Origin: an uncultured archaeon
GTDB taxonomy: Archaea; Asgardarchaeota; Thorarchaeia; Thorarchaeales; CAZPUN01
Direction of reading: 5' to 3'
Assembly: GCA_964589775.1 (NCBI GenBank)
Contig: CAZPUN010000023.1
Coordinates: 120,001 to 152,000, forward strand
DNA: 32,000 nt
In this document: in pieces, positions 3,460 through 32,000 of the stretch
Position numbering within the stretch: position 1 is the stretch's first letter
Layout: each line of letters starts with the position of its first letter
Notes under the pieces: generated by a model
Databases searched by the model: none
What the model was told of the DNA's origin: nothing
What the model saw: the letters and a program-made list of their open reading frames with translations, nothing else
Program-made: the position numbers and the translations under genes

Positions 3460-3486
3460 CAAAATGGAGCTTATGAGCTCCTTTTG
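3460..3486. terminator. Bidirectional hairpin terminator between convergent genes
   Basis: CAAAAT-GGAGCT-TATG-AGCTCC-TTTTG, lying between the stops at 3444 (+) and 3493 (-). Confidence 0.7.
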
Positions 3487-3492
3487 CTTATT

Positions 3493-3837
3493 TTATGATT
3501 GAAGCTCTTGTGAAATTTCTTTCTCGAGTTTATCTAGCTCCTGCTCATCTTCTACAAGTTCAATTTCATCTGATTCTAAATTGAAAATTTCATCATCATG
3601 ATCGTCTGTTACAGTTTCGAGTTTATAAAGTACTTTAAAGCCAGATAAAGTCATATGGATGGCGTTTCCGATCTCTACAATATCATCTAGCACGATGTCC
3701 CCTTTGTGTTCATACACAAAATCATATGCGCCCTTTATTGGCTTGAATCCCAATCCCATTAATTTCTCAATTACTATGGATGGCGGAGCACCCTCAGAGT
3801 TAAACCATACAGTTAGATATGTCTTCAAATATGTCAC
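3493..3837 (-). CDS. Conserved-looking archaeal hypothetical protein with an acidic tail
   Basis: KTYLTVWFNSEGAPPS...LGFKPIKGAYDFVY...YKLET core, followed by a D/E-rich tail. Confidence 0.7.
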   Translation of the reverse strand: MTYLKTYLTVWFNSEGAPPSIVIEKLMGLGFKPIKGAYDFVYEHKGDIVLDDIVEIGNAIHMTLSGFKVLYKLETVTDDHDDEIFNLESDEIELVEDEQELDKLEKEISQELQS

Positions 3838-3956
3838 GCTCCATGTGAATATTTAATGTATTTCTCTATTTAATTATATACATTTATCCAATATTATTAT
3901 ATCCCATCTATTGTATTAAAAATAATCGTTTCCTTTTTATTAATTAACGTTTCGAT

Positions 3957-5009
3957 TTATCGTCTTAAAGACTCATAATTGAGTTCGGATTTCCATTTTA
4001 TTTTACAATCACATGTTAAATTATCAAATACTTTTGGATTCTGGTGTAATGCGTAATTTCTGATGGCCTCTAGAACCGTTGTATCACACTTTCCACAGTT
4101 ATGTGCGCCTCTATCTTTTCCTGCCGCAGTTGGATCACAATCAAATCGAATTTGCTTTGTGTATTGTGCTGTTCTTTTTAGTACCTCTACGACACTCCAA
4201 AGCCAAGGTGGTCTATAACTACCTGCTTTCCACACTTTCTCAACTAATGTACCCGATTGTATATTCATTGGATTTATTGATATCGTGGTAGTTCCAGCTT
4301 TGATTGCAAACTCAATTGATCTAAGTGCATCATCGATTGCTTCTGCCTCTGATAGAAATAGAGGTTTAAATAGCAAATATGTTCTGACACCAAATCCAAG
4401 TTCTCTTGCAGTTCGGACTGCTTTTAGATATAATTTGTTTGTAAATCCTTTATTGATCGAATGGACTCTTACAAATTCGTTACTTGATTCAAGACCAATT
4501 GCAATTTCTACCGATTTATTACTAAGTATCTGCTTTATGTCTCGTAGATATTGTTTCCGAACAAATTCAGGTCTTGATTCCAATACAATTTCTTTTACTT
4601 CATCTATATTTGATAAAATTTGGAGGATTTCGTTTCGTGCATCGGTTGGGACCTCTTTTGGGTCGAGAAAACTGCCTGATGTATATATTTTCACAATGTA
4701 CGGTGGCTTTTTATTTCTTAGATTTTCCAAGGCAACATTCAATTGTGATACTAGTATATCCTTAGTTGCAGTTCCTTCTATATATTCACTAACATACCCA
4801 CACATTGAGCATCCGCCGGATTTAGATCGGGACCAGAAACAACCTATTGTTTCTAAGACTAAAGACAGTCCTGTACCAATTTGACCCTGAACGCTCTCGG
4901 GTGCAAACCAATATGTTGCAGGTCTATTGCCTATTTGTTTCTTATGCTCAAATGTTCGACTTCTAATTTCATAGACTTCTGCAGCTAATGCTTTATCGTA
5001 ATACTCCAT
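3957..5009 (-). CDS. raSEA: Archaeosine biosynthesis radical SAM protein RaSEA (TIGR01210 type)
   Basis: GCFWSRSKSGGCSMCGY cluster motif, KIYTSGSFLD, ESRPE, YLLFKP, YRPPWLWS, RGAHNCGKCD. Adjacent to arcS. Confidence 0.93.
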   Translation of the reverse strand: MEYYDKALAAEVYEIRSRTFEHKKQIGNRPATYWFAPESVQGQIGTGLSLVLETIGCFWSRSKSGGCSMCGYVSEYIEGTATKDILVSQLNVALENLRNKKPPYIVKIYTSGSFLDPKEVPTDARNEILQILSNIDEVKEIVLESRPEFVRKQYLRDIKQILSNKSVEIAIGLESSNEFVRVHSINKGFTNKLYLKAVRTARELGFGVRTYLLFKPLFLSEAEAIDDALRSIEFAIKAGTTTISINPMNIQSGTLVEKVWKAGSYRPPWLWSVVEVLKRTAQYTKQIRFDCDPTAAGKDRGAHNCGKCDTTVLEAIRNYALHQNPKVFDNLTCDCKIKWKSELNYESLRR

Positions 5010-18195: not shown

Positions 18196-19449
18196 TTACT
18201 CTCCCCCTAATATTTCGTTTAATGCGTCTGTAATTAGTTCGACCAAAAAGTCTTCATTATATTCTTCAGGAATTGTAAGCTCTGATATGAATTCTCGGAC
18301 TTCCTCTTCTGGGTCCTCAATTAAATAATCTGTATCTTCTGTTGGATTTATTATATCGCCCATATCTTCTTTATATACCTCGTAGTCCCATGTAAATTGT
18401 ACAATATTATATTCGTCTGATTTCAAAATATCTGTTACATAATAACTCAAACGTGATTCTATTTCCCAAGATTTTGTAAGGCTTGTTTTTCCTTCAATTT
18501 TAATTTTCAGGCGTGCTGCAGTTTGAGGGTCAAAGGGTGCTTTCAGTCCAAGTTGTTCTAATATCTTCTCGATTCGGTTCAATATATTTTCTGCAATATC
18601 TTTATTCGTTATTTCAATCTCTTTGACATACATTGGTCTTTGAGTCGGAATTATTATCTTTTCCACAATTGGTTTCTTGCCCTTTTCTGCATTTACTAAT
18701 AGTATTCCTTTTTCATGTTTATATTCATCAAATCGCCATTTTTCTATTGAACCTGCGTAATATCCATTTGCTGTATACTGGTGCATGTGATGGTCATGTC
18801 CCAATGCTAAATAATCATAATTATGTTGCTTAATCTCAGGTGGTAGTGTTTCATCTAATTCCATTCCATGCGCAACAGCAATCGATGTTTTAGTTCCCGG
18901 TTTTTGCTGCGTTAATATCCATTGTTTATATATTTCACGTAGTTGTGGATTTTGTAGAGTGTCTCGCGATACATATGGAAATGCAAAAACTTCGAAATCA
19001 TCAAATTCGAATTTTAGTGGTTTCCGTTTATTTAATGCATCTTTAAGATCCACATAAGTTGCTATGTATATTTCTGGGAATGCATACTTAAATGATGAAA
19101 GTAATGATGCATCAATTCCCTTGTATAATCCATGATTGCCTTCAATAATTATTAGGGGCTTGCCTACTTTTTTGAAGTATTTTTCAAAAGTATCAAATGC
19201 GATTTCCCTTGCAACTTCACTAACCGGATACGGATTACGTTCCCATGGTGCATCGAATAAGTCTCCAGAATGAACTACAACATCATATTTATCTTTCATC
19301 TCAATTATTTTGTCAAATACTCTCTGGAATTGCTTATAGAAATCATCCTCAACCCATCGTGATCGTAATGTAACTGCCCAGCCATCTCTGACGCCATTCC
19401 GCTCTTTATGCCCTAAATGTGTATCTGATAAGTGAATTAATCTAACCAT
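18196..19449 (-). CDS. mre11: Mre11/SbcD metallophosphoesterase nuclease
   Basis: HLSDTHLG, SGDLFD, EGNH, AHG, YLALGHDH, YAGSIE...FDE. Confidence 0.92.
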   Translation of the reverse strand: MVRLIHLSDTHLGHKERNGVRDGWAVTLRSRWVEDDFYKQFQRVFDKIIEMKDKYDVVVHSGDLFDAPWERNPYPVSEVAREIAFDTFEKYFKKVGKPLIIIEGNHGLYKGIDASLLSSFKYAFPEIYIATYVDLKDALNKRKPLKFEFDDFEVFAFPYVSRDTLQNPQLREIYKQWILTQQKPGTKTSIAVAHGMELDETLPPEIKQHNYDYLALGHDHHMHQYTANGYYAGSIEKWRFDEYKHEKGILLVNAEKGKKPIVEKIIIPTQRPMYVKEIEITNKDIAENILNRIEKILEQLGLKAPFDPQTAARLKIKIEGKTSLTKSWEIESRLSYYVTDILKSDEYNIVQFTWDYEVYKEDMGDIINPTEDTDYLIEDPEEEVREFISELTIPEEYNEDFLVELITDALNEILGGE

Positions 19450-19461
19450 AAAACTTCCCCA

Positions 19462-21303
19462 TTAAAATTGAACATCTGGTTCATTATTATCTGTTAGTTC
19501 AAAATTATTTAACTCTTGTTGTATCATTTCAAATCTGTCTGGGAATCTAGGAACATTAAATGGTAATGGTGTACTGCGATAAGATGCTGTAAGTATTCCA
19601 TGCCCAACTTCAAGGGTATTATATTCTTCAGTAAATCCCGATAATGGTGCGCTTGCACTTTCTATTGCCGCACGTGCTTCTCTTTCATTGCCTAATCTTA
19701 AAAAGAACTGTGTATTTATTTGTGATAATATATCTGCATCTATTGTGCTCACCTGCTGGCTAATCACAACTAAACCTATACCAAACTTACGGCCTTGTCT
19801 AGAAATGTCTTTGAATAATGAACTTTGCCCTAATATTTCAGAATTCAAAATTTGTGGGGCTTCTTCAATTGTAATCAAGATAATCGGTAATGTTCGAATT
19901 TCTCTTAAAGTGTTATTTGATTCCCGATATATCTTCAGTGCTTTAGGTCTAAAATTATCCCAAAACTTTGCAGTCAGTCCCATTTTCGCTTTGTTTGTAA
20001 ATGAGTCTATGGAATCTGAACTTGCTAATGCTTGCCTTAAATTAAAAAGAATTCTTGCGACAATGGTTGTTACTAAGAATTGTTCATGTACTGACAAAAG
20101 TGATGTATTTATATCAATGATTCTTCCACTTTCTAATGCTTCAATGATTTGTGGTAATATCGATTCTTGAACTGGAATGTCCTTGAATATTCGTGACCTG
20201 CGCAGGAAATATAATCTTCTCTGTACTGCATTATGAGTTTGTTTTGTCTCGCCCTCTATAGGGTCATTATTGTTTAGAATCTCATTAATCCAATTATCTC
20301 CGAAAATTCCATATGCTCGATTCATATACGCTATTTGTAATGGATTTAATGAAAGGATAGATATGATATCCTTTGGCAGGATCTCTGTCCATGCTATTTG
20401 TAATTTACGACCATAATTTTTTAATTCATGTGGCATTCTTTCAGTTGAAGCTGTGAGATAGAAAAAGTCTCCAATTACATTATTTCGATCATTTGAGCTC
20501 ATTTCGTTTACAATATGTGCAATTCCTCTTCGATCTTCATCAGTTCCGGATCCCAATGCATATTCATCATGTGGATCAATTATCAAACTTCCAATTCTCG
20601 GAATATTAATCGTAGATGATTTAAGCGATCTAAAGTTCGACAGAATCATAGATGAAATTAGAACTTGCATCAAATTGCTTTTTCCAGCACCAGTTGTTCC
20701 AAATATTCCCATATGTGTTGCTAGATTTCGGACTGGTAAATTCATTTCTACATTTAGAACCGATTCTCCGGAAACTAGGTTTCCAAAATAAAGTTCGCCT
20801 GCAATCTGGGTCCCTAACAAATCACGAATAAAATCATCACTTATGCCCGCTTGCGGTACATATACTCGTGCGAGATGGTTTGGTATTCTACGTGGGCGTT
20901 TGAATTCCCATTTTCTTTTATTTATGTTGTATTCAGAGTATCCAATGAAGCTTCCCCTTATATCTAAAATCAAATATTGATTTGCATCTACAAAATAAGT
21001 ATCGTTCCTTCTAAGAAGATCTGTAGCAATATCTTCAAGATTTTTTATGTATGTGATACTAGGTGAAATTGAAATTGCTCTGAAGAAAAACACTCGCTCT
21101 ATGCCAATATCTTCATCCTTTGATGTTCTAATATAACTTGGAATAATAAATATTTCACCAATACTTGAATCATATAAATTCCCGATTACTTGCATCATAG
21201 ATTGGTCTCCGGATGCAAGCCTTCCGAAATAGTATCCTAATTCATCTTGGTGAAGTCTTAATTCGGGACCTAAATCTTGTTGGATATACGTGTTGTCTGA
21301 CAT
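19462..21303 (-). CDS. herA: HerA helicase/translocase (FtsK-HerA superfamily)
   Basis: HMGIFGTTGAGKSN, IIDPHDEY, ITIEEAP (Walker B), RQGRKFGIGLVVISQ, ILSQINT. Probable N-terminal HAS barrel. Confidence 0.92.
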   Translation of the reverse strand: MSDNTYIQQDLGPELRLHQDELGYYFGRLASGDQSMMQVIGNLYDSSIGEIFIIPSYIRTSKDEDIGIERVFFFRAISISPSITYIKNLEDIATDLLRRNDTYFVDANQYLILDIRGSFIGYSEYNINKRKWEFKRPRRIPNHLARVYVPQAGISDDFIRDLLGTQIAGELYFGNLVSGESVLNVEMNLPVRNLATHMGIFGTTGAGKSNLMQVLISSMILSNFRSLKSSTINIPRIGSLIIDPHDEYALGSGTDEDRRGIAHIVNEMSSNDRNNVIGDFFYLTASTERMPHELKNYGRKLQIAWTEILPKDIISILSLNPLQIAYMNRAYGIFGDNWINEILNNNDPIEGETKQTHNAVQRRLYFLRRSRIFKDIPVQESILPQIIEALESGRIIDINTSLLSVHEQFLVTTIVARILFNLRQALASSDSIDSFTNKAKMGLTAKFWDNFRPKALKIYRESNNTLREIRTLPIILITIEEAPQILNSEILGQSSLFKDISRQGRKFGIGLVVISQQVSTIDADILSQINTQFFLRLGNEREARAAIESASAPLSGFTEEYNTLEVGHGILTASYRSTPLPFNVPRFPDRFEMIQQELNNFELTDNNEPDVQF

Positions 21304-21318
21304 GATTTTTATCCTCCC

Positions 21319-22626
21319 TCATCTAATATGTATGAGCTCTCGTTGATTTAAAAACAGATTTGAGTTAAATCCGAGTCCGGTTGCAATTTCAATTAGCATA
21401 TTATATAATATGCGTTCAGTATCTCGTGATATCTTACAATTATTGTGAGCAACTGCAAGTGGAGCTGGATATCCTACCCAATATATACCTCGCGACATGA
21501 AATCTAAATCTTGGAATATTTGATGTTCATTCTCATGCAATGTGTTAATATCTTCATCATAAATATTTTCTCGCCACCATAACGCATCGAAATCAACTCG
21601 TAATGTTGGCTTGTTTGGATCAAGCTGGACTAAATACGGAACTGTTAATGGTGGTGGGATATATCTGCGATTTTCTAAAATTCTAAGGCCTTGCTCGCTT
21701 GGTATTCCTCCCGGCAGTCGAATATACCATCTGGAATTATTGCCAAAAATCTCATTTGCAATTGCTATAGCTTCATTTGTAAACGGAATTGTATGTGTTT
21801 TTGAGACCGCCATAACTATTACATTGTGGTCTCTCGCTGTTTTTAGTATATCTCTTAATAAATATCCAATTATGTCCGTGGGTAGCATAGTTGTTGGATC
21901 ATATTTAAAGCTTAATGAACCATCTAGTAGCATATATCGTAAATTGCTACCTTCAACTATTGCTCTCTTTGCGATTCCTAATTCTCCAATTCGCATTGAA
22001 GTTGAAAATAGATTTGCGGCTGAAATTGTAATTCCTTCAATTAGCATATCTTCATTAAATAACGGTTTATTCTCTATATTATAGTGTTTTTTCATTTCTT
22101 CATAATATGTATTGATAATTTTTTGAAAATCTGCAGCTGTTGGTTCTTCAATTCGGTTGTTTGTATCATCATATACAGGATAATATTCAATTAATTGTTC
22201 ATGAATATATCTAATAGGTTCTCCATCATCTTGGCTAATCCATTTTGTTTCTAGATGGCCTTTACTAAAAAAGTTAGGATTTTCTTCTTTTGATACATTA
22301 TGGAACAAGTTTCGTTCATTTGTTCCCGTATTATGTACCGCTAAATAATAACTTTCAACAATTATATCAATATCTTCAATTGTGACCAGTGGGTATACAC
22401 CAGAGCCATCTACAGCTGCAATATTAAAATCATCTGGTTTTCCGAGTTCATTTGTGTATTTATGAGAAATCTTTAGTGGTTCGATTTTTTGGATTAATTC
22501 ATTCATAATGCGTTCGCGGTCTAGTTCAAATCTTTTCTTGTTTTGCTCTCGTGTCCGCCTAATATCCAATAATGTTGCAGTAATTTGTCGTCTGAACTCA
22601 TTTTGAAAAATTCTTATTAGTGACAT
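21319..22626 (-). CDS. nurA: NurA 5'-3' nuclease
   Basis: IAAVDGS, GE, LLDGSL, AVSK, GYPAPLAVAHN. Located next to herA. Confidence 0.9.
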   Translation of the reverse strand: MSLIRIFQNEFRRQITATLLDIRRTREQNKKRFELDRERIMNELIQKIEPLKISHKYTNELGKPDDFNIAAVDGSGVYPLVTIEDIDIIVESYYLAVHNTGTNERNLFHNVSKEENPNFFSKGHLETKWISQDDGEPIRYIHEQLIEYYPVYDDTNNRIEEPTAADFQKIINTYYEEMKKHYNIENKPLFNEDMLIEGITISAANLFSTSMRIGELGIAKRAIVEGSNLRYMLLDGSLSFKYDPTTMLPTDIIGYLLRDILKTARDHNVIVMAVSKTHTIPFTNEAIAIANEIFGNNSRWYIRLPGGIPSEQGLRILENRRYIPPPLTVPYLVQLDPNKPTLRVDFDALWWRENIYDEDINTLHENEHQIFQDLDFMSRGIYWVGYPAPLAVAHNNCKISRDTERILYNMLIEIATGLGFNSNLFLNQRELIHIR

Positions 22627-23505: not shown

Positions 23506-23622
23506 AACTTTTTTATAATTCATTTATAATATATATTTACAAAACAATAAAATAACGTCGTAAAAATCCATAAATAGTTGTTTGAATATATTTATATTAC
23601 GCAATATGTAGGGGTGAGAAAA

Positions 23623-25401
23623 TTGTCCCAAGATGAAGTAAAAAAAGTGATTATTGATCTTGAAGAAACTGAAGAGACGGAAATCGGCGAACACAGCGAG
23701 CAGCTTGGTATAGCTGTTGAGGGTGTCCTGACCGTAAAGAATGTCTCTGAGCAACACAGAATCTGGAATACCAAAGTAGATGTATCTGAAGGCCGAGATT
23801 CCACAGACTTTGATGCTGACAGTCTGCATGTTGGAGAAATAAATCCACAAGATAAGTGGTCTACAAATTATGGTGTGAAATCTGAGGCACCAATACTCAA
23901 AGTAACTGAAATATTCGATGCATGTAGAACTGTAGAGTCAGAGGATCCGCATTATGCCTATGTGTATGGTTTTACAAATCCTGTAAAATTTACAATTACT
24001 CTCAAGAACGAAATCGATGTTCAGATTGATGACATTGTGCTTAAAAAAACCATTCCTCCTGAAATTACCTCTGTAAAAGTTGAAAATGCAAGTGTAGGTA
24101 ATGCGGTGTTTGATGAAGAGAATCATGTTGTAACATGGAGTGACTTCATTCTATTTCCGGGCGAAAGTGCTACTTTAGAGCTTGTTGCGGATGCTGAGAT
24201 GCCTGATGTATCTGTCAAGAATGCCGGTGAAATCGTTGTAACGTACAAGGCAGAAAATGCCCAGAAAAGCAGTCTCAATCCTGACTTGACAGCATTAACA
24301 GAAGTTCTTGTAGGTATCGATAAAGAAGAAACTGAACCAAATCACTGGGTATGTACTCTTGAATTCGAAAACACAACTGATATCCTTGTGCGTCTAGATA
24401 AGGCTGAAGTGTTCTATACTGATGAAAGTGGAAATACACAAAAGATGATTGATGAGGAACCACATTTAGAAATTCCACCAGGTGAGACATGGAGTAAATC
24501 TTTTGAACTTGATTCAAAGACACCTCCAGAATGCAGTCACAATGTCGTACATACACCGGTAAAAACCATAACTAAGCGTGTAATTGGTACTGTAAAGAAA
24601 GTTGCCCAGACTGTGCCTGTCTATCGCGTTGAGCTGAACAAAGTATTTGATCCACCTGAAGTAAATAGCTTCGATAAGACTCCAGTTGATGTCACCCTAG
24701 AAGCAATTAATGCTGGAACCGCACCGTTGAACAAGGTTGTCATTATTGACACAATTCCTGAGGATGTCATGCCACCAAAGAAAGAACATATTACCATAAT
24801 GATTGGTGACCGTGAATACGATGGTGAATTCGATTTCCTTCTGGATCCAAATGATGAAAATCCTGAGAATGCTCATACTATGACAATTACACTAAATCTA
24901 AGTGATGATTGGATTCTCCAACCGGACCAGAAAGTTGTTGTTAACTATGCAATTATGGCTTGGAAACCAAGACCTGAGAAAACTTATCCTGCGCCTCTTA
25001 CTGTAAAAGGTAATGTGCTTCCTGAGGGAATCTTTGCTGAGGTTTCTACTCCTGAAGAAGAACCCAAATTACTCATCAAGTATCGAAGACGTCGTATCAG
25101 CGCATTCAAAGCAATCAATAAGGGCAGTCAGTCCGGTCAATTTGTCATACCATTACGAATTGAAAACCGCGGTGAAGTTACTATTGAAAATGTAGTAGTC
25201 AAGGATTGGATTCCAAAAGGCTACAAGTTAGTATCAGTTGAGCCTGACGATTTGCAACCCGAGACACAAGCAGTCGAAGATGGTACACTACTTATTTGGA
25301 CCTTTGTTAAGATGTTCCCAGGCGACAAGAAAGAGATCAAATATGTTGCAGAGGGTGAAGGCGAATACGAACGCCGTGATCCTGAAGTAAGTGGAGATTA
25401 G
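23623..25401 (+). CDS. Acidic all-beta multidomain protein: mu-homology-like domain plus DUF11/Ig-like domains, no signal peptide
   Basis: Repeated [IL].N.G.....V...D.IP...W...PG units. TTG 23623 follows GGGGTGA (the track start is 23578). Confidence 0.65.
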   Translation: MSQDEVKKVIIDLEETEETEIGEHSEQLGIAVEGVLTVKNVSEQHRIWNTKVDVSEGRDSTDFDADSLHVGEINPQDKWSTNYGVKSEAPILKVTEIFDACRTVESEDPHYAYVYGFTNPVKFTITLKNEIDVQIDDIVLKKTIPPEITSVKVENASVGNAVFDEENHVVTWSDFILFPGESATLELVADAEMPDVSVKNAGEIVVTYKAENAQKSSLNPDLTALTEVLVGIDKEETEPNHWVCTLEFENTTDILVRLDKAEVFYTDESGNTQKMIDEEPHLEIPPGETWSKSFELDSKTPPECSHNVVHTPVKTITKRVIGTVKKVAQTVPVYRVELNKVFDPPEVNSFDKTPVDVTLEAINAGTAPLNKVVIIDTIPEDVMPPKKEHITIMIGDREYDGEFDFLLDPNDENPENAHTMTITLNLSDDWILQPDQKVVVNYAIMAWKPRPEKTYPAPLTVKGNVLPEGIFAEVSTPEEEPKLLIKYRRRRISAFKAINKGSQSGQFVIPLRIENRGEVTIENVVVKDWIPKGYKLVSVEPDDLQPETQAVEDGTLLIWTFVKMFPGDKKEIKYVAEGEGEYERRDPEVSGD

Positions 25402-25419: not shown

Positions 25420-27243
25420 TTATTTTTTACTTTTTGTATCAACAAAATAATATTGTCCAGTTGCTTTTTGTTGTGTATCCATCTGGCTTCCTTCTTTGTT
25501 AATTCGTGGTCTTCCTGTTTGTGGGTCTCTTCTGAATGTTACTCCCATATCTTTCAAGAATTTGTTCATTCCTACTTTTAGTGGCAGTACTGAAGATGCA
25601 TGTCCTTCAACACCGGGAGTTCCATCGAATACTACAAGACTATCACTGATATAATCCGCCGTAATCATAGAATGTTCAACAATGAATGCCGCGGCAAATC
25701 TGCTTTGGATTACCTTTCGAATGGCGCGTGCAGCTTCTAATCTTTGTTCAACGTCCAAGAATGCAGATGGTTCGTCCAATAGATATAAATCTGCATCTCT
25801 CGCAAGACAACCTGCAATGGCTACACGCTGTAGTTCGCCTCCACTTAGCTCCGGAACTGGGCGCTCCATTAACTTATCAAGTTCTAATCTTTTTATGACG
25901 GTTGTTTGAAAATCTGCGGTGGATGCGTATTCGCCCCCTATCTTTGCAAGAAACATTCTCACTGTACCATCAAAATCTGCTTTGAGATATTGTGGTTTAT
26001 AACTAACTTTTAGCTTTTCTTCTTCTTCTTTTGAAATTGGTGAATCGCCCTTATCCGGTGCGAGCACGCCTGCAAGAATTTTTACAAATGTTGTTTTTCC
26101 AATTCCATTTGGTCCTAAAATTCCAATAATTTCACCTTTATGAACTCTGCCCGGACTGATCTTGAGCTTGAATTTTTCAAAATGCTTTTCCATTTCTCCA
26201 TATTCTAGCAATACTTCTTGTGCGGAAAAATCAGTTCCCGCACCACTTCCATGATGGAAGTAAATCTTTGTATCTCGAAATCGGATATTTTCGTCGGGCA
26301 GGAATCCATCTAAATATATGTTTATACCAACTCTTGTCCCGTGAGGATTTGATACAATACCGTATACACTTGGCTTGCCATAAAATATAGAAACATAATC
26401 TGAGACATAGTCTAATATAGATAAGTCGTGTTCGACTACAACTACGGTTTTTCCTTTTTCGGCTAGTTTTCTGATCGCTTTTCCCGTCTTTAATCTTTCA
26501 GCTACATCCAAGTATGCTGTTGGTTCATCAAATAAGTATATATCGCCTTCTCGTACGATTGCTGCAGCTATTGCTATTCTTTGCAATTCTCCTCCACTAA
26601 GATGCTTTATTTTTCGATTCCATATTTTATCTAATGTCAACATATCTTTTACTTCATCAAGTCTTCCGGAAGTATTTACTTTCTCTAATAGCTGTCCTAC
26701 GGTTGCTTCTGCTATGCTTGGCAGTTTTGGTAAATCCGTAATATTCTGAGGTTTGAAAATTGCTTTTATTTTTCCATCTCTCATCTTTTCAAAGAATGGT
26801 TGGAGCTCTGAACCTCTGTAGTATCTAATTATCTCATCCCAATCTGGTGGATCATCAAATTTACCTAGATTTGGCTTGATTTCTCCTGCTAATATTTTCA
26901 TTGCGGTTGATTTTCCTACTCCATTTGGTCCTACAAGTCCTAATACCTTCTGTGGTTTTGGAATAGGAAGTCTAAATAGCTTAAAGCTATTGGCACCATA
27001 TCTATGGGATGTATCACTATCTAATTCCTCTGGAAGATTAATTATAGTTATTGCATTAAATGGGCATTTCTTAACACAAATTCCACAACCCGTACATAAT
27101 TCTTCCACGATGACTGGTGGTTTTCCTTCGACTGGAAATACAACAGCGTCTGAACCGGTTCGGACAATTGGACAGAAACGTCGGCACTCTTGAGTACAAT
27201 CTTTTACTTTACATCTATCTTTATCTACTATTGCTAACCTCAC
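25420..27243 (-). CDS. rli: Ribosome recycling ATPase ABCE1/Rli1
   Basis: N-terminal 2x[4Fe-4S] domain (C..C...CP; CTGCGICVKKCP), two NBDs (GPNGVGKS, GPNGIGKT, LSGGELQR x2), TFRRD..GRPRINK. Confidence 0.97.
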   Translation of the reverse strand: MRLAIVDKDRCKVKDCTQECRRFCPIVRTGSDAVVFPVEGKPPVIVEELCTGCGICVKKCPFNAITIINLPEELDSDTSHRYGANSFKLFRLPIPKPQKVLGLVGPNGVGKSTAMKILAGEIKPNLGKFDDPPDWDEIIRYYRGSELQPFFEKMRDGKIKAIFKPQNITDLPKLPSIAEATVGQLLEKVNTSGRLDEVKDMLTLDKIWNRKIKHLSGGELQRIAIAAAIVREGDIYLFDEPTAYLDVAERLKTGKAIRKLAEKGKTVVVVEHDLSILDYVSDYVSIFYGKPSVYGIVSNPHGTRVGINIYLDGFLPDENIRFRDTKIYFHHGSGAGTDFSAQEVLLEYGEMEKHFEKFKLKISPGRVHKGEIIGILGPNGIGKTTFVKILAGVLAPDKGDSPISKEEEEKLKVSYKPQYLKADFDGTVRMFLAKIGGEYASTADFQTTVIKRLELDKLMERPVPELSGGELQRVAIAGCLARDADLYLLDEPSAFLDVEQRLEAARAIRKVIQSRFAAAFIVEHSMITADYISDSLVVFDGTPGVEGHASSVLPLKVGMNKFLKDMGVTFRRDPQTGRPRINKEGSQMDTQQKATGQYYFVDTKSKK

Positions 27244-28372: not shown

Positions 28373-30223
28373 TTATCTATATCCAGGTCTCTGAGATAAT
28401 AATCGAGGTATCGTAAGTTCTCGTTTTGGATATCCTTTTGTTTCTTCGGTTATTTTCTCGATTAATTCGTCTTCTGTAATTTTGATATTTTCTCTAGTTG
28501 CTCTAACACGTACTGATAGTTTTCCGGATTTTATCTCTTGCTCTCCAAGAACCACAATAAATGGTATCCATTTTGTTTCGGCTTCTCTCATTCGATATGA
28601 TAGTTTTTCATCTCTATCATCTATATCTACTCGGAATCCCGCTTGTTCAATTTTATCTGCGAGTTCGTTCGCCTTTGATAGCATTTCTGAGCCCATTGGA
28701 ATTATTCGAACTTGAACTGGTGAAAGCCAGACTGGTAGCATTGGTTTCTTACCTTGTTTCTCCATTAATACAATGCTATCTAGAACTGTGTACAAGTATC
28801 GTTCGATTGTTCCAATTAAAGCTGTATGTATTATGGGTGGATATTGCTTCTGATCGTTTTCATCTCTGTATGTAATTTCAAATCTCTTTGCATTACCAAT
28901 ATCGATCTGGAATGTGCCAATTTCTCTTGGGCGTTTCATAGTATCAACAATGCAGTATTCGATATTAATTACCCAATAGAATTTATTTTCTGGAACAAAG
29001 TGTAGTAATACTGGTTTGCCTTCCTTCTTCACAAGACTCATAATATAATCCTTTTCTTTCTCAAAATATGATTTTGTTAAATTATATAATGATACATATT
29101 CACGTCCAAGGTTCTTTGCTTCGTTTAGAATTATTTCATGTAATTTCAGAGTGACTTCTTGACTATCTTTTACGTCTTTTGTGAATACATGAAAGTCAGG
29201 CATATGCAGCTTTCTAGTCCTAAAGGACAGCATCAATTCTCCTTTTTGTTCAAGTCTATATGAATCTGCTACTTCAAAGGCTCCAAATGGTAGATTCTTG
29301 TAGCTAATTATCCAGTCTTTTACCATTGCGAATTGTTGATGACATGCTGCATATCGCATAACAAAATCTTTCTCATCCACTGAAACTTTATACAATCTAT
29401 CTCCGAACAATTCTGCATGTGTTCTTACTGGTGGTGCTGATAAATCAAACATGTTTGTTCCCTTGACCATCATCGTGGGAACGCCTGATTTCTTTACGAC
29501 AGTCCATGCATAATCTGCAATCAAATCAAATATGATAGTTCCCTCAGGACCATATCTCATATGGCCCGCATCTGAAAGTGGTTCCCACTCGATGCCAAAT
29601 TTTTTCAAATATTCTTGATATTTCGGAGTACCCTTTACTTCAAATGGTTCCTTGAAAACTTCTTTTGCGACAAGTCTTTCAAAGTCTTTGTCTTTCTTTG
29701 TAAACTTGTATTCCTTAGGATCGTACGTTTTCCCATCAGGTGTCAAAATTAGAAATTCTTCTGCTGCTTCTTCTGCTTTTGCAGTAATCTTTTTTGGTTG
29801 TATGTGTCGGGATAATTCTGATAATGGATGCCCTTTACACGATACTGTAAAGCTCTTATACCAACCAAACATAGCTCTATGTACCTCAAATTTTTCAGCT
29901 TTGAGTGCTTTCTCAAGTTCCTTTAGCACCCGCAATGCAACATCTGGAGACGAAAGATCTGAGGATATGTGGGCAAAGGGATAAATGACTATTTTTTCTG
30001 CATTAACTTGCTCAGCAACTTTCTTGATTTCTGTTACAGCATTTTCAATAAGTGCAGGTTCATCTCTTGAATCCCCTTTTTCCACAGCAGTGAATACTAC
30101 AAGGCATTCATCAATTCGCTGGGGTTCCATTGAATCAATTTCTTCTGCACTATCAATAGCTTTTTTCTTTGGTTGGAACTCTAAGAAATCTGAATGTATT
30201 AACAATATTCTCAAGTGACACAC
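28373..30223 (-). CDS. thrS: Threonyl-tRNA synthetase, archaeal type with N-terminal editing domain
   Basis: RILLIHSD, IYPFAH.SSDL, FGWYKSF.VSCKGHPLSELSR, AACHQQF, MPDFH, IHTA.IG.IER, and an anticodon-binding domain. The start may be TTG 30214. Confidence 0.97.
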   Translation of the reverse strand: MCHLRILLIHSDFLEFQPKKKAIDSAEEIDSMEPQRIDECLVVFTAVEKGDSRDEPALIENAVTEIKKVAEQVNAEKIVIYPFAHISSDLSSPDVALRVLKELEKALKAEKFEVHRAMFGWYKSFTVSCKGHPLSELSRHIQPKKITAKAEEAAEEFLILTPDGKTYDPKEYKFTKKDKDFERLVAKEVFKEPFEVKGTPKYQEYLKKFGIEWEPLSDAGHMRYGPEGTIIFDLIADYAWTVVKKSGVPTMMVKGTNMFDLSAPPVRTHAELFGDRLYKVSVDEKDFVMRYAACHQQFAMVKDWIISYKNLPFGAFEVADSYRLEQKGELMLSFRTRKLHMPDFHVFTKDVKDSQEVTLKLHEIILNEAKNLGREYVSLYNLTKSYFEKEKDYIMSLVKKEGKPVLLHFVPENKFYWVINIEYCIVDTMKRPREIGTFQIDIGNAKRFEITYRDENDQKQYPPIIHTALIGTIERYLYTVLDSIVLMEKQGKKPMLPVWLSPVQVRIIPMGSEMLSKANELADKIEQAGFRVDIDDRDEKLSYRMREAETKWIPFIVVLGEQEIKSGKLSVRVRATRENIKITEDELIEKITEETKGYPKRELTIPRLLSQRPGYR

Positions 30224-30452
30224 TTCCAGATCTTTTATTTTGTTAATTTATTCTTTTATTTTTAAAATAATATTGTATATCTTGTGACCATTTACATCTT
30301 AAGAACGTTGCGACTTGTTCTACCATGAAAAAAAGCTAGTTTTTTATATAGAATTTCATATATATTATATTTAAAATAGCAATATGCATTTAAGTAGCGT
30401 TTATAATTATTTAAAATTGAATTATTTTATTCAAAAATTAAAAATTTAATGG

Positions 30453-31334
30453 GTGGCCACATTGATAAGAGAATTACACGTCTTTGATAAAGAAAAATTG
30501 GTCTTCAAGGATTCAATAGTTCCTACAAAAGGAATTGATTTGGAAAAGATTCTTTACGTTACAGTAAGTTCTGCATTTCAGCAAAAGGAATGGCGAATTG
30601 ATAGTCTTGAAATTTCACGCTATAGATTTACTTACACAAATGCCCATGGGTATGCTTTTGTTATGACGTCTGATAGGGCCGCCACAAAAGAGAAAATTGA
30701 AGAAGCTTTTATGAAGGTAATTACTGAATTTGTCAAGATTTGCATGGATTCAAAATGCAATGATGAAGATACAAAAGAAGACTTTAAGGATGCTTTTAGA
30801 CGGATTGCAGGACGATTGCCCATTAAATTCTGTCTTGCAGGACATGGTGGAACTGGAAAAACTACATTGTTAGAACTTGCTATTCTGCCTACAAAAGGCC
30901 CCCCTCAGAAATATGTTCCTACATTCTTTGGCGATAAAGCCATGTTAAAATCAGATTTTGATCCATATGTACTTTCACTATTTGACCTTGGTGGTCAGGA
31001 TCGATTTGTACAAGAATGGAGCAAAATAATTCGAGCGAGTAGTGGCGTAATTGTTGTAAGTGATTCTACACCCGCAAATATATCTTGGCTACGAAGAGTT
31101 GCATTGCCAGTTCTCAAAGCGAATTTGCCATATTCTCGTGCAATTGCTCTTGCGAATAAGCAAGATCTGCCCGGTGCATTATCCCCTGAAGAAGTAGAGC
31201 GCCGTCTCGGAATTCCCGCATATCCTATGATTGCGAATCGGAAAGAAAATCGCGATAAATGGCTGAAATTGCTAAAGGATTTATTGTTCGAGAATTTAAG
31301 ATTTATAGTTATAGGAGATGTTCCCGATGAGTGA
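30453..31334 (+). CDS. Longin-like domain fused to an Arf-like small GTPase
   Basis: G1 GHGGTGKT, G2 YVPT, G3 DLGGQ, G4 ANKQDLPGALS. The N-terminal ~120 aa show a longin beta-beta-alpha-beta-beta-beta-alpha-alpha pattern. Confidence 0.88.
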   Translation: MATLIRELHVFDKEKLVFKDSIVPTKGIDLEKILYVTVSSAFQQKEWRIDSLEISRYRFTYTNAHGYAFVMTSDRAATKEKIEEAFMKVITEFVKICMDSKCNDEDTKEDFKDAFRRIAGRLPIKFCLAGHGGTGKTTLLELAILPTKGPPQKYVPTFFGDKAMLKSDFDPYVLSLFDLGGQDRFVQEWSKIIRASSGVIVVSDSTPANISWLRRVALPVLKANLPYSRAIALANKQDLPGALSPEEVERRLGIPAYPMIANRKENRDKWLKLLKDLLFENLRFIVIGDVPDE

Positions 31335-31893
31335 TGAATTGTCTTCAGTGATTTCAAAAATAGAAGACGCAACAAGAGAGTTACGACAGAAAATCACAGT
31401 GGAGCAGGATACAGAAATTAATAAAAAATTAGATAATATCATTGAGGACATTTCTACACTTAAGATTACTATTAATCGTATAGCTTCGACCATTGCAACA
31501 ATATCTACAAAAAATGACCAAATACTTAGTATTCTCTCAAGTAAAAAGATTCCTGTTGTTGAAGAAAAGCCATCTGAGCCTGAAATGCCAGAAATTCATA
31601 TTGAAGAGTCTTCTATGGCCAAAAACGTTGAGGCAGCTACTGAAGAAGTATCTGAAGTATCCGAAGTCTCAGAACTTTCAGAAAAAGAACGTACAAGGCT
31701 TGAACAAGAACTTAGAACATTAGAAAGCAATCGTGATATTCTACAAGAGCGATTAAATGAATTATATGAATTGAGTCTTTCAGATCCAACATCTGAAAGC
31801 GAATATGAAGCTGAAATTGAGGAAAAAGAATCATCATTAAAAGAAACGAAAAAGAAAATACGATCAATTAAAAGAAAGCTTGGGAGGTCGTAA
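31327..31893 (+). CDS. Coiled-coil protein with an acidic linker and C-terminal helical hairpin
   Basis: Heptad repeats; overlaps the GTPase stop. ATG 31327 follows GGAG. Confidence 0.75.
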   Translation: MSDELSSVISKIEDATRELRQKITVEQDTEINKKLDNIIEDISTLKITINRIASTIATISTKNDQILSILSSKKIPVVEEKPSEPEMPEIHIEESSMAKNVEAATEEVSEVSEVSELSEKERTRLEQELRTLESNRDILQERLNELYELSLSDPTSESEYEAEIEEKESSLKETKKKIRSIKRKLGRS

Positions 31894-31895
31894 AG

Positions 31896-32000
31896 TTGGG
31901 TATTTTTGATTCATTGTTAAGAAAGAAATACAAGAAGAAAATGGTTCATATTGAGCCCAAAGAATCCGAAGTTGCCCCTAAAAAGGAAGAAGTAACTAGC
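31896..32000 (+). CDS. Partial ORF (runs off the window end), third gene of the GTPase operon
   Basis: TTG 2 nt after the previous stop, with a GGAGG RBS. Translation: MGIFDSLLRKKYKKKMVHIEPKESEVAPKKEEVTS. Confidence 0.65.
   Translation, partial: MGIFDSLLRKKYKKKMVHIEPKESEVAPKKEEVTS

Follow-up and report, generated by a model that had tools for sequence, protein, structure and literature searches.

A conserved operon around a longin-Arf-like small GTPase of Asgard archaea

Asgard archaea harbour dozens of small GTPases and longin/roadblock proteins, the working partners of which are almost unknown. The genes for these GTPases usually lie outside operons, so that partners are hard to assign; for strain MK-D1, Tran et al. 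2024 state that GTPase genes are generally not found in operons with longin or roadblock regulators (PMC10933270). An exception is presented here. It begins at the 3' end of a stretch of 32,000 nucleotides (nt) from an uncultured archaeon of the order Thorarchaeales (positions 120001-152000 of contig 23), hereafter called the window, with an open reading frame (ORF1) encoding a longin domain fused to an Arf-like small GTPase. With which proteins does this GTPase work, and does a separate anchor bring it to a membrane? The latter question is testable with recombinant proteins and bears on the origins of Arf, Rag and their scaffolds. As read from the sequence, ORF1 is co-encoded and translationally coupled with five other proteins. 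With it, one longin-Arf-like GTPase gains four or five candidate partners, and the operon is conserved across the order and beyond. No description of this conserved operon was found in the literature searched; as far as that literature shows, the architecture of ORF1 has been published already and the operon around it is undescribed.

An earlier note on this DNA had read positions 30453-32000 as three tightly coupled ORFs and had proposed a self-contained membrane-remodelling switch, the membrane targeting of which may be supplied in trans. The coordinates, the 8-nt overlap of ORF1 and ORF2 and the 2-nt gap between ORF2 and ORF3 were all confirmed; a further gap measures 7 nt, and Shine-Dalgarno-like sites are present. 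The note had also proposed to retrieve the downstream sequence. On the contig the operon continues past the window with the rest of ORF3, ORF4, ORF5 and ORF6, which makes six genes, the trio in the window being the first half (Table 1).

Conservation of the operon

Conservation was analyzed in a locus survey with one genome per species, using tblastn and ORF maps. This yielded 42 loci, 41 of them with an ORF1 orthologue. The gene order recurs in ~40 independent Thorarchaeota genomes at an ORF1 identity of 51-59% (34-38% in deeper relatives), an arrangement far beyond chance. The order ORF1-ORF2-ORF3-ORF4-ORF6 was found in 24 of the 40 Thorarchaeota-type loci, with orthologues of 183-194 amino acids (aa) for ORF2, 113-132 aa for ORF3, 427-489 aa for ORF4 and ~112 aa for ORF6; in a 25th locus (L039) the contig ends inside ORF4. 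Twelve of the 40 loci have ORF1-ORF3-ORF6 only and one has ORF1-ORF3-ORF4-ORF6. ORF1 and ORF3 are adjacent in at least 37 of the 39 assessable Thorarchaeota-type loci. Other Asgard lineages, Atabeyarchaeia among them, have reduced forms of the operon. In Atabeyarchaeum and isolate LC30, where ORF1 identity is 38%, the GTPase gene precedes two others, one ORF3-like and one for a short ORF4-like protein that shares the winged helix of ORF4. Two metagenomic orthologues with 34-35% identity are directly followed by a protein consisting of a coiled coil, a Pro-rich linker and a hairpin, with a 101-aa ORF3-like protein next in one of the two (L049).

A winged-helix protein is found in every operon form. 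Judged from these gene orders, the constant core of the operon is ORF1, ORF3 and a winged-helix protein, not ORF1-ORF2-ORF3. The earlier note had staked its proposal on conservation of the trio in related genomes. The order is indeed kept in ~40 genomes, but ORF2 is dispensable in about one third of them. Nor did any test support the reading of the switch as self-contained: the module includes more conserved parts, namely the coiled-coil/winged-helix protein (ORF4) and the small winged-helix protein (ORF6).

Across the phylum, the ORF3 profile was detected in 96 of 301 sampled genomes: in 65 of the 77 genomes of the sister family and in eight other families, and in none of the genomes of several large families. 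ORF3 orthologues located directly downstream of ORF1 or ORF2 number 37. In the source genome ORF3 is present in a single copy, at this locus only.

The proteins of the operon

More than 200 ORF1 homologues of ~293 aa were found, mostly from Thorarchaeota. An AlphaFold2 model of ORF1, built on an alignment of 33 family members, has a predicted local distance difference test score (pLDDT) of 92.4 and a predicted template modelling score (pTM) of 0.89 for the whole two-domain chain. This pTM suggests that the longin and G domains are packed in a fixed arrangement. In the model, DSSP assigns to the N-domain, in this order, strands 5-12 and 15-21, helix 30-43, strands 50-54, 57-64 and 67-74, and helices 79-99 and 105-120. 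The predicted order strand-strand-helix-strand-strand-strand-helix-helix over residues 1-121 is that of a longin domain. A profile of 26 N-domains matches AP-2 sigma (E 7.4e-6, positions 1-98) and, more weakly, AP-2 mu, AP-3 sigma, MON1 and VAMP7. Pfam searches with single family members gave Fuz_longin_1 (up to 3.2e-9), Clat_adaptor_s (up to 9.9e-5), Longin and Intu_longin_3; ORF1 by itself matches Fuz_longin_1 weakly (E 0.015). The ESM Atlas model of ORF1 aligns with template modelling (TM) scores of 0.70-0.77 overall, among others with AP sigma (0.72), Sybindin (0.77) and Fuz-type clusters. The N-domain is therefore modelled as a longin fold of the sigma-adaptin/TRAPP kind. The earlier note had predicted a sigma-adaptin/longin-like domain in the place of the Arf amphipathic helix, and had named failure of the N-domain to model as a longin as grounds for giving up its proposal. 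The domain does model as a longin, in agreement with the DSSP order, the AP-2 sigma profile match, Pfam and the ESM Atlas, and the Arf N-terminal helix is absent.

The presence of Gly-Pro in the loop that joins strands 1 and 2, together with an arginine finger, has been given as a criterion for longins of the GTPase-activating protein (GAP) type (PMC12290439). This Gly-Pro, known from the FLCN/NPRL2/SMCR8 class, is absent from ORF1 and its orthologues. Arginines of the ORF1 longin domain are the invariant Arg6 in strand 1 and Arg56, Arg58 and Arg75. Many polar residues of this domain are invariant in the 24 orthologues aligned.

The G domain matches Pfam Arf over residues 124-255 with 43.2 bits (cut-off 22.3, E 3.9e-11); Pfam Ras also passes, narrowly (26.0 vs 21.6). 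Phmmer searches of the PDB with the G domain gave Arf1 as best match (5e-10), and Arf1, Arf2 and the solved Asgard ArfR were found at 5e-10 to 1e-8. GerdArfR1 (8oum), MglA (E ~4e-10) and Arf1 are the top Foldseek matches, and VIA structural comparison gave Arf6 (Z 18.2) and SR-beta (2fh5, Z 16.0). In the same 24 orthologues the P-loop, switch I Thr157, D178-L-G-G-Q182 with the catalytic Gln182 and N235-K-Q-D238 are all invariant. The G3 and G4 motifs and the longin-like strands that the earlier note had quoted are present in ORF1 as read. Its remark that G5 is atypical needs a restriction: G5 is unusual, yet its Ala261 is retained in all orthologues. Based on these motifs, the G domain is complete and should be catalytically competent.

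Zhu et al. 2025 give a glycine at the third position of G3 and a Leu-Asp pair in the P-loop as Arf-specific criteria (PMC11914678). ORF1 has the G3 glycine (DxGGQ), the glutamine and NKQD. Its invariant P-loop, G-H-G-G-T-G-K-T, has no Leu-Asp pair at positions 2 and 3, which speaks against the reading preferred below. Since the P-loop lacks Leu-Asp though the G3 glycine is present, the domain is termed Arf-like only; it appears Arf-like by best match. An amphipathic helix in the same chain, another Arf characteristic, is lacking in ORF1. Published AArfs likewise vary at the N-terminus (PMC11914678).

The source genome encodes at least six full-length longin-GTPase paralogues and ~10 further longin domains. 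The nearest ORF1 paralogue in this genome belongs to a gene pair on contig 21 (15390-17106; L048:7391-9107). It encodes a longin-Arf-like GTPase of 290 aa that scores 71 bits on Pfam Arf, and the second gene encodes 266 aa comprising a coiled coil, a linker rich in Pro and Glu and a hairpin at the C-terminus. The layout of this pair equals that of ORF1-ORF2. The 266-aa protein has a sub-threshold match to the CdvA coiled-coil model (5.9e-5); it showed no significant similarity to ORF2 (BLASTP E 3.8) or to ORF3 (hhalign probability 0.8%). A gene located 2.4 kb downstream of this pair (L048:11462-13879) encodes 805 aa that form a long coiled coil and end in an EAP30/Vps36 domain (3.1e-19). Furthermore, in three paralogues from other metagenomes (P0193, E 1.4e-5; P0152; P0181) a longin-GTPase carries a long C-terminal extension ending in an ORF3- or ORF2-type hairpin, and several more share the same turn motif. 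The existence of these fused paralogues ties the hairpin module to the GTPase. Together, fusions and parallel operon argue, as an argument and not a measurement, that the parts work together.

ORF3 consists of a conserved N-terminal motif, a variable basic linker and a ~65-residue C-terminal helical hairpin with a conserved Gly turn (family isoelectric point, pI, ~9.6). Gly2, Asp5, Arg8 and Arg9 are nearly invariant in the alignment. In Thorarchaeota a short hydrophobic patch is followed by four or five basic residues, giving a net charge of +3 to +7 over 16 residues. At this position a clear amphipathic helix is seen in the deep ORF3 orthologue P0271 (muH 0.51, H 0.44 over 18 residues). The N-terminal motif is a candidate membrane-binding peptide. 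In eukaryotes, N-termini of the Arf family of small GTPases and of the Vps20-like ESCRT-III family bind membranes, and N-termini of the same style as that of ORF3 occur in this genome in an MglA/Arf-like small GTPase and a Vps20-like ESCRT-III protein. The former is a 251-aa protein (L048:4291-5046; Pfam Arf 54 bits, MglA-like P-loop), in which a Gly-hydrophobic-polybasic peptide as in ORF3 is connected to the G domain by a ~60-residue Pro-rich linker. The latter is encoded by one of two adjacent ESCRT-III (Snf7) genes on the minus strand of contig 23 (71254-72330, ~48 kb upstream of the window) and resembles eukaryotic Vps20 in its Gly2 hydrophobic-basic N-terminus; a third ESCRT-III copy lies on contig 20 and Vps25 on contig 64. 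Many Thorarchaeota genomes encode a second protein of ~200-230 aa that matches the hairpin part of the ORF3 profile only (E ~1e-7 to 1e-9), and this protein may be the partner of a paralogous GTPase.

In ORF2 an acidic linker connects an N-terminal coiled coil to a helical hairpin at the C-terminus (family pI ~4.6). Its orthologues, within the size range given above, were found at the same position in 25 loci, and the hairpin with a D-P turn is conserved. Searches of Pfam and the PDB with ORF2 gave generic coiled-coil matches only, and a PDB profile search with ORF3 gave generic hairpins and coiled coils only. A BLOC-1/BORC lead for ORF2 was dropped: Snapin_Pallidin (6 of 16 ORF2 members, best 0.0022), DASH_Dad1 and LOH1CR12 matched below threshold and the PDB profiles were generic coiled coils. 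The hairpins of ORF2- and ORF3-type proteins have a pattern that may be called SHOCT-like, after the short bihelical SHOCT module (PF09851): a helix is combined with a turn containing Gly or Asp and with an acidic-aromatic pair. They differ from SHOCT in being longer (~65 residues) and in having a coiled coil alongside. SHOCT is matched by 5 of 24 ORF3 members at E up to 0.1, all below the 27-bit cut-off, and by deep ORF2-like proteins (4e-5 and 0.0047), the best being P0272 with 23.6 bits against the same cut-off. ORF2 and ORF3 of the window themselves gave no SHOCT match. A common origin of the ORF2 and ORF3 hairpins was considered and is unsupported as homology (hhalign probability 2.3%), the layouts being alike. 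The Thorarchaeota ORF2 family and the deep ORF2-like P0272 reach 20% only in hhalign. Elsewhere in the window (13379-14758, plus strand) a 459-aa protein with an IFT52 GIFT domain (1.7e-24) also ends in a helical hairpin, which aligns with that of ORF2 ungapped with 15 of 64 identical residues (E 0.022). Within this genome, hairpins of this kind seem to recur as a module and not to mark a link specific to ORF2.

ORF4 and ORF6 provide two winged helices, between which no similarity was detected. The C-terminus of ORF4 gave weak matches to TrmB, MarR_2, HTH_24 and ArsR. For neither protein does a Pfam DNA-binding family reach the cut-off, and PDB profile searches with both gave generic coiled coils and hairpins plus a weak ArsR match. 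The pI of the ORF4 winged helix ranges from 4.7 to 9.3, i.e. it is not consistently basic. The AlphaFold2 model of ORF6 (pLDDT 87) has helix 29-40, strand 44-46, helices 47-56 and 61-74 and strands 79-82 and 85-88, with flanking helices. This predicted succession of helix, strand, helix, helix and two-stranded wing is that of a winged helix. The best VIA match is CzrA (Z 8.5, 86 residues, root-mean-square deviation 3.5), nearly all listed matches are winged helices, and ORF6 looks closest to ArsR/SmtB repressors. Foldseek returned nothing for ORF6 at E up to 0.001, values being only ~0.1, and no similarity to DUF742 or another named family was detectable. The families of ORF2 and ORF4 are acidic (pI ~4.6-4.7), those of ORF3 and ORF6 basic (~9.2-9.6).

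ORF5 has no Pfam match. It is absent from the 42 related loci, and in 30 relatives no clear match was found, two weak partial hits being obtained. For these reasons ORF5 is read as a late, lineage-specific insertion outside the conserved module. Its ESM Atlas model is poor (pLDDT 0.63, TM 0.37-0.45); residues ~110-375 align over ~225-235 residues with beta-COP/adaptin appendage regions. Asgard proteins combining longin, adaptin appendage and Vps28-C have been described (Makarova et al.; PMC10936438), and ORF5 may be one of them.

Table 1 Features of the operon and its upstream spacer (coordinates are those of the window)
Feature	Position	Strand	Description
AT-rich intergenic spacer	30224..30461	+	sequence as read; between divergent threonyl-tRNA synthetase gene and ORF1; presumed promoter region
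ORF1, longin-Arf-like small GTPase	30462..31334	+	290 aa from TTG 30462; 293 aa from GTG 30453
Longin domain of ORF1 (predicted)	30462..30815	+	residues ~4-121
G domain of ORF1	30816..31298	+	residues ~122-282
ORF2, acidic coiled-coil/hairpin protein	31327..31893	+	188 aa from second ATG; 191 aa from ATG 31318
ORF2 C-terminal hairpin	31690..31881	+	SHOCT-like helix-turn-helix module; conserved alignment block
ORF3, small basic protein	31896..32000	+	first 35 of 111 codons in window; gene ends 231 nt past window
ORF3 N-terminal motif	31896..31940	+	TTG start, Gly2, two or three hydrophobic residues, Lys/Arg run
ORF4	beyond window		406 aa; long coiled coil and C-terminal winged helix
ORF5	1470-2948 nt past window end		493-510 aa; between ORF4 and ORF6, this genome only
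ORF6	beyond window		113 aa; small basic winged-helix protein

Of the two candidate starts of ORF1, the TTG is probably the true one, because the product then begins as all orthologues do, four codons into the listed ORF, and because a GGTGG ribosome-binding-like site lies 5 nt upstream; the own-genome profile match also starts at 30462. The TTG start of ORF3 (read as Met) is preceded by GGGAGG, and many orthologues have ATG at the same place. On the opposite strand upstream of ORF1 lie genes for threonyl-tRNA synthetase, with an archaeal editing domain, and F420 glutamyl ligase, the former ending at 30223 on the minus strand. Scanning for bacterial promoters and terminators gave results at chance level, with a sigma-70 model that is not applicable to archaea. 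Downstream of the operon a small ribbon-helix-helix-like protein is encoded (L002:5556-5918 on the downstream contig sequence, in which ORF5 occupies 3470-4948); eight other loci also have it no more than a few kb away from the operon. A KaiC-like ATPase with two domains (L002:7789-9327) is also located 3' of the operon.

The source genome (2.16 Mb, 64 contigs, 96.75% complete) is the sole member of its own family and belongs to the same order as the 30 relatives. Named homologues of the proteins studied come nearly all from metagenome-assembled genomes of Candidatus Thorarchaeota. The stretch is present in two sequencing runs only, both of hydrothermal-vent metagenome DNA, one of which is probably its source; no RNA run is listed as containing it. 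Elsewhere in the window a DNA-repair cluster (16104-22626, minus strand) encodes Rad50-like (zinc hook) and Mre11-like phosphoesterase proteins, a HerA-like helicase (DUF87) and a 435-aa protein with no Pfam match, possibly NurA. A 607-aa protein with DUF11 repeats, its only Pfam matches (23578-25401, plus strand), has ABCE1/RLI as its neighbour (25420-27243, minus strand).

Possible functions of the operon products

What might these proteins do together? We tentatively propose, with a confidence that falls a little short of even, that the operon products form a GTP-regulated membrane scaffold, in which ORF3 would be the anchor and the longin domain a built-in platform. The N-terminal peptide of ORF3 would anchor the assembly to the membrane, standing in for the Arf amphipathic helix in cis. 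ORF2, ORF3 and ORF4 could contribute their hairpins and coiled coils to a bundle that serves as stalk or tether. Regulation or dimerisation of the G domain would fall to the longin domain, comparable to the roadblock/longin platforms for MglA, Rag and Rab, and assembly of the scaffold would be set by the nucleotide state. Output may run via the two winged-helix modules. This is the best-supported reading; in its logic such a scaffold would follow Rag with Ragulator, not a vesicle coat.

Targeting in trans by ORF3 is plausible, because its N-terminal motif is nearly invariant, the P0271 orthologue carries an amphipathic helix at this place and N-termini of the same style occur in cis in other proteins. 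The charge complementarity between acidic ORF2/ORF4 and basic ORF3/ORF6 is counted for the scaffold. Co-folding of ORF1, ORF6 and ORF3 with their own alignments gave a score of 0.00, which counts neither for nor against contact. The membrane remodelling suggested by the earlier note found no support in any test made here and is a conjecture.

Several observations weigh against a membrane scaffold. The earlier note had recognized a membrane-binding-type helix at the start of ORF3. The motif is there, but a long amphipathic helix is not: in Thorarchaeota the short patch and polybasic run have a helical moment (Eisenberg scale) not above that of shuffled sequences and a mean hydrophobicity of ~0, and the N-terminus is neither long nor apolar enough to form a classical amphipathic helix. 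ORF2 and ORF4 are lacking in about one third of the loci and are therefore not essential parts. An output to nucleic acids or to transcription would account for the two winged-helix modules no less well than a function at the membrane. Finally, Zhu et al. hold that longin-bearing Asgard Arfs are probably not membrane-acting (PMC11914678). In favour of a membrane-binding peptide, the same paper describes GTP-dependent membrane binding for Asgard Arfs with an N-terminal helix.

The winged helices are central to the main alternative, which we consider unlikely, of cytoplasmic signalling resembling that of MglA-MglB or of conservons. GTPase and regulator would be fused in ORF1, the output would go via ORF4 and ORF6 to DNA or another target, and the coiled coils would merely dimerise the parts. 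Actinobacterial conservons combine a GTPase, a roadblock protein and a small helix-turn-helix-like protein. Structural comparison of the G domain indeed places MglA among the best matches, the basic winged helix of ORF6 is nearest to ArsR/SmtB, the ORF4 C-terminus shows its weak matches to DNA-binding families, and no operon form lacks a winged-helix protein. However, the Pfam DNA-binding families all stay under the cut-off, the ORF4 winged helix is not consistently basic, ORF6 resembles neither DUF742 nor any named family, and the nearly invariant N-terminal peptide of ORF3 is left unexplained. If the winged-helix proteins bind DNA instead, a eukaryote-like GTPase would be wired to a prokaryote-type output.

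A proto-coat or adaptor, in which longin, Arf-like G domain and an appendage-like ORF5 would constitute a primitive vesicle-coat module, is distinctly improbable. AP-2 sigma is the best sequence match of the longin profile, the ORF5 model aligns with appendage regions and Asgard proteins with longin, appendage and Vps28-C have been published (PMC10936438), but sigma and the longins of TRAPP and MON1 are matched about equally well. ORF5 lies outside the conserved module and its model is poor. Moreover, the operon encodes no large adaptin/HEAT subunit, mu-homology domain or cage protein.

It is equally improbable that the genes are co-transcribed neighbours only, whose products share no common complex. 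Contact between the products is hypothetical, and ORF2, ORF4 and ORF5 come and go between genomes. The adjacency of ORF1 and ORF3, which holds in relatives down to 34% identity, the fused forms and the single copy of ORF3 at this site only argue against mere neighbourhood. An ESCRT-linked nucleator, with ORF3 as a Vps20/CHMP6 counterpart docked on a Vps25-like ORF6 under control of the GTPase, is very improbable: in its favour are a likeness of layout only (Gly2 N-terminus and helical hairpin), the N-terminus style shared with the Vps20-like ESCRT-III of this genome and the sub-threshold matches of some hairpin proteins to the CdvA coiled-coil model, whereas Pfam Snf7 and ESCRT-II gave no matches, the canonical ESCRT genes lie elsewhere in the genome, and homology of the operon proteins to ESCRT-III and Vps25 was rejected on hhalign probabilities below 2% (0.1-1.6% for ORF3 and ORF2 against the three ESCRT-III proteins, and for ORF6 and ORF4 against Vps25, of the same genome).

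Comparison with known systems

Fusions of longin and GTPase domains in Asgard archaea, which the earlier note took as established, have been published. Some Asgard Arfs have as N-termini extra domains "such as longin" (Zhu et al. 2025; PMC11914678), and MK-D1 has GTPase domains fused to longin or roadblock that are called Rag-like but are close to Arf (Tran et al. 2024; PMC10933270). ORF1 is like the Asgard AArf/ArfR proteins (8oum/8oun) in its Arf-like G domain and in the longin replacing the N-terminal helix. ArfR is its best Foldseek match and ranks among its best sequence matches. It differs in the P-loop, which lacks the Arf-type Leu-Asp, and its likeness to these proteins is one of best-match rank. 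A further difference is that ORF1 lies in a conserved operon, whereas neither text, in the parts available, describes partners or an operon (PMC11914678, PMC10933270).

In MglA-MglB of Myxococcus and archaeal relatives a small GTPase is also combined with a roadblock/longin-type platform, and MglA is a top structural match. However, MglB is a separate roadblock homodimer and the longin of ORF1 is in cis, and the G3 and G4 motifs of ORF1 are of the Arf type, not the MglA type.

The SRP receptor offers a likeness, since the switch face of its Arf-like SR-beta is held by the longin-fold SRX domain of SR-alpha, and SR-beta (2fh5) is among the structural matches of ORF1. In contrast to the receptor, the parts are fused in ORF1, which has no transmembrane anchor and no SRP-type NG domain nearby; Pfam SRPRB matches weakly, below the cut-off (E 0.004).

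The scaffold proposed here shares most of its logic with Rag and Ragulator (LAMTOR1-5). Rag, like ORF1, has its G domain and a roadblock/longin platform in one chain. LAMTOR1 anchors the Rag GTPases to the membrane via its Gly2 N-terminus, a separate, small and largely helical protein tethering a GTPase, as is proposed for ORF3. ORF3 has no detectable similarity to LAMTOR1 and, to our knowledge, lipidation is not known in archaea. The layout of the GTPases differs as well: the accessory domain of Rag is a C-terminal roadblock and that of ORF1 an N-terminal longin, a Pfam search with ORF1 at E up to 1 did not return Gtr1_RagA, and the longin-GTPase paralogues score 20-21 bits on this model, below the cut-off of 22. 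A farther-reaching possibility, which is unlikely on these data, is that the operon represents an archaeal forerunner of the logic of a GTPase with a separate lipid-binding anchor and a coiled-coil scaffold, as in Rag-Ragulator, Arl8-BORC and Arf/Arl-golgin. ORF3 would then recruit the longin-GTPase to the membrane in trans, after which the GTPase would control assembly of the hairpin/coiled-coil tether. In that case Asgard archaea would already have had two solutions side by side, the amphipathic helix of Arf and a separate anchor.

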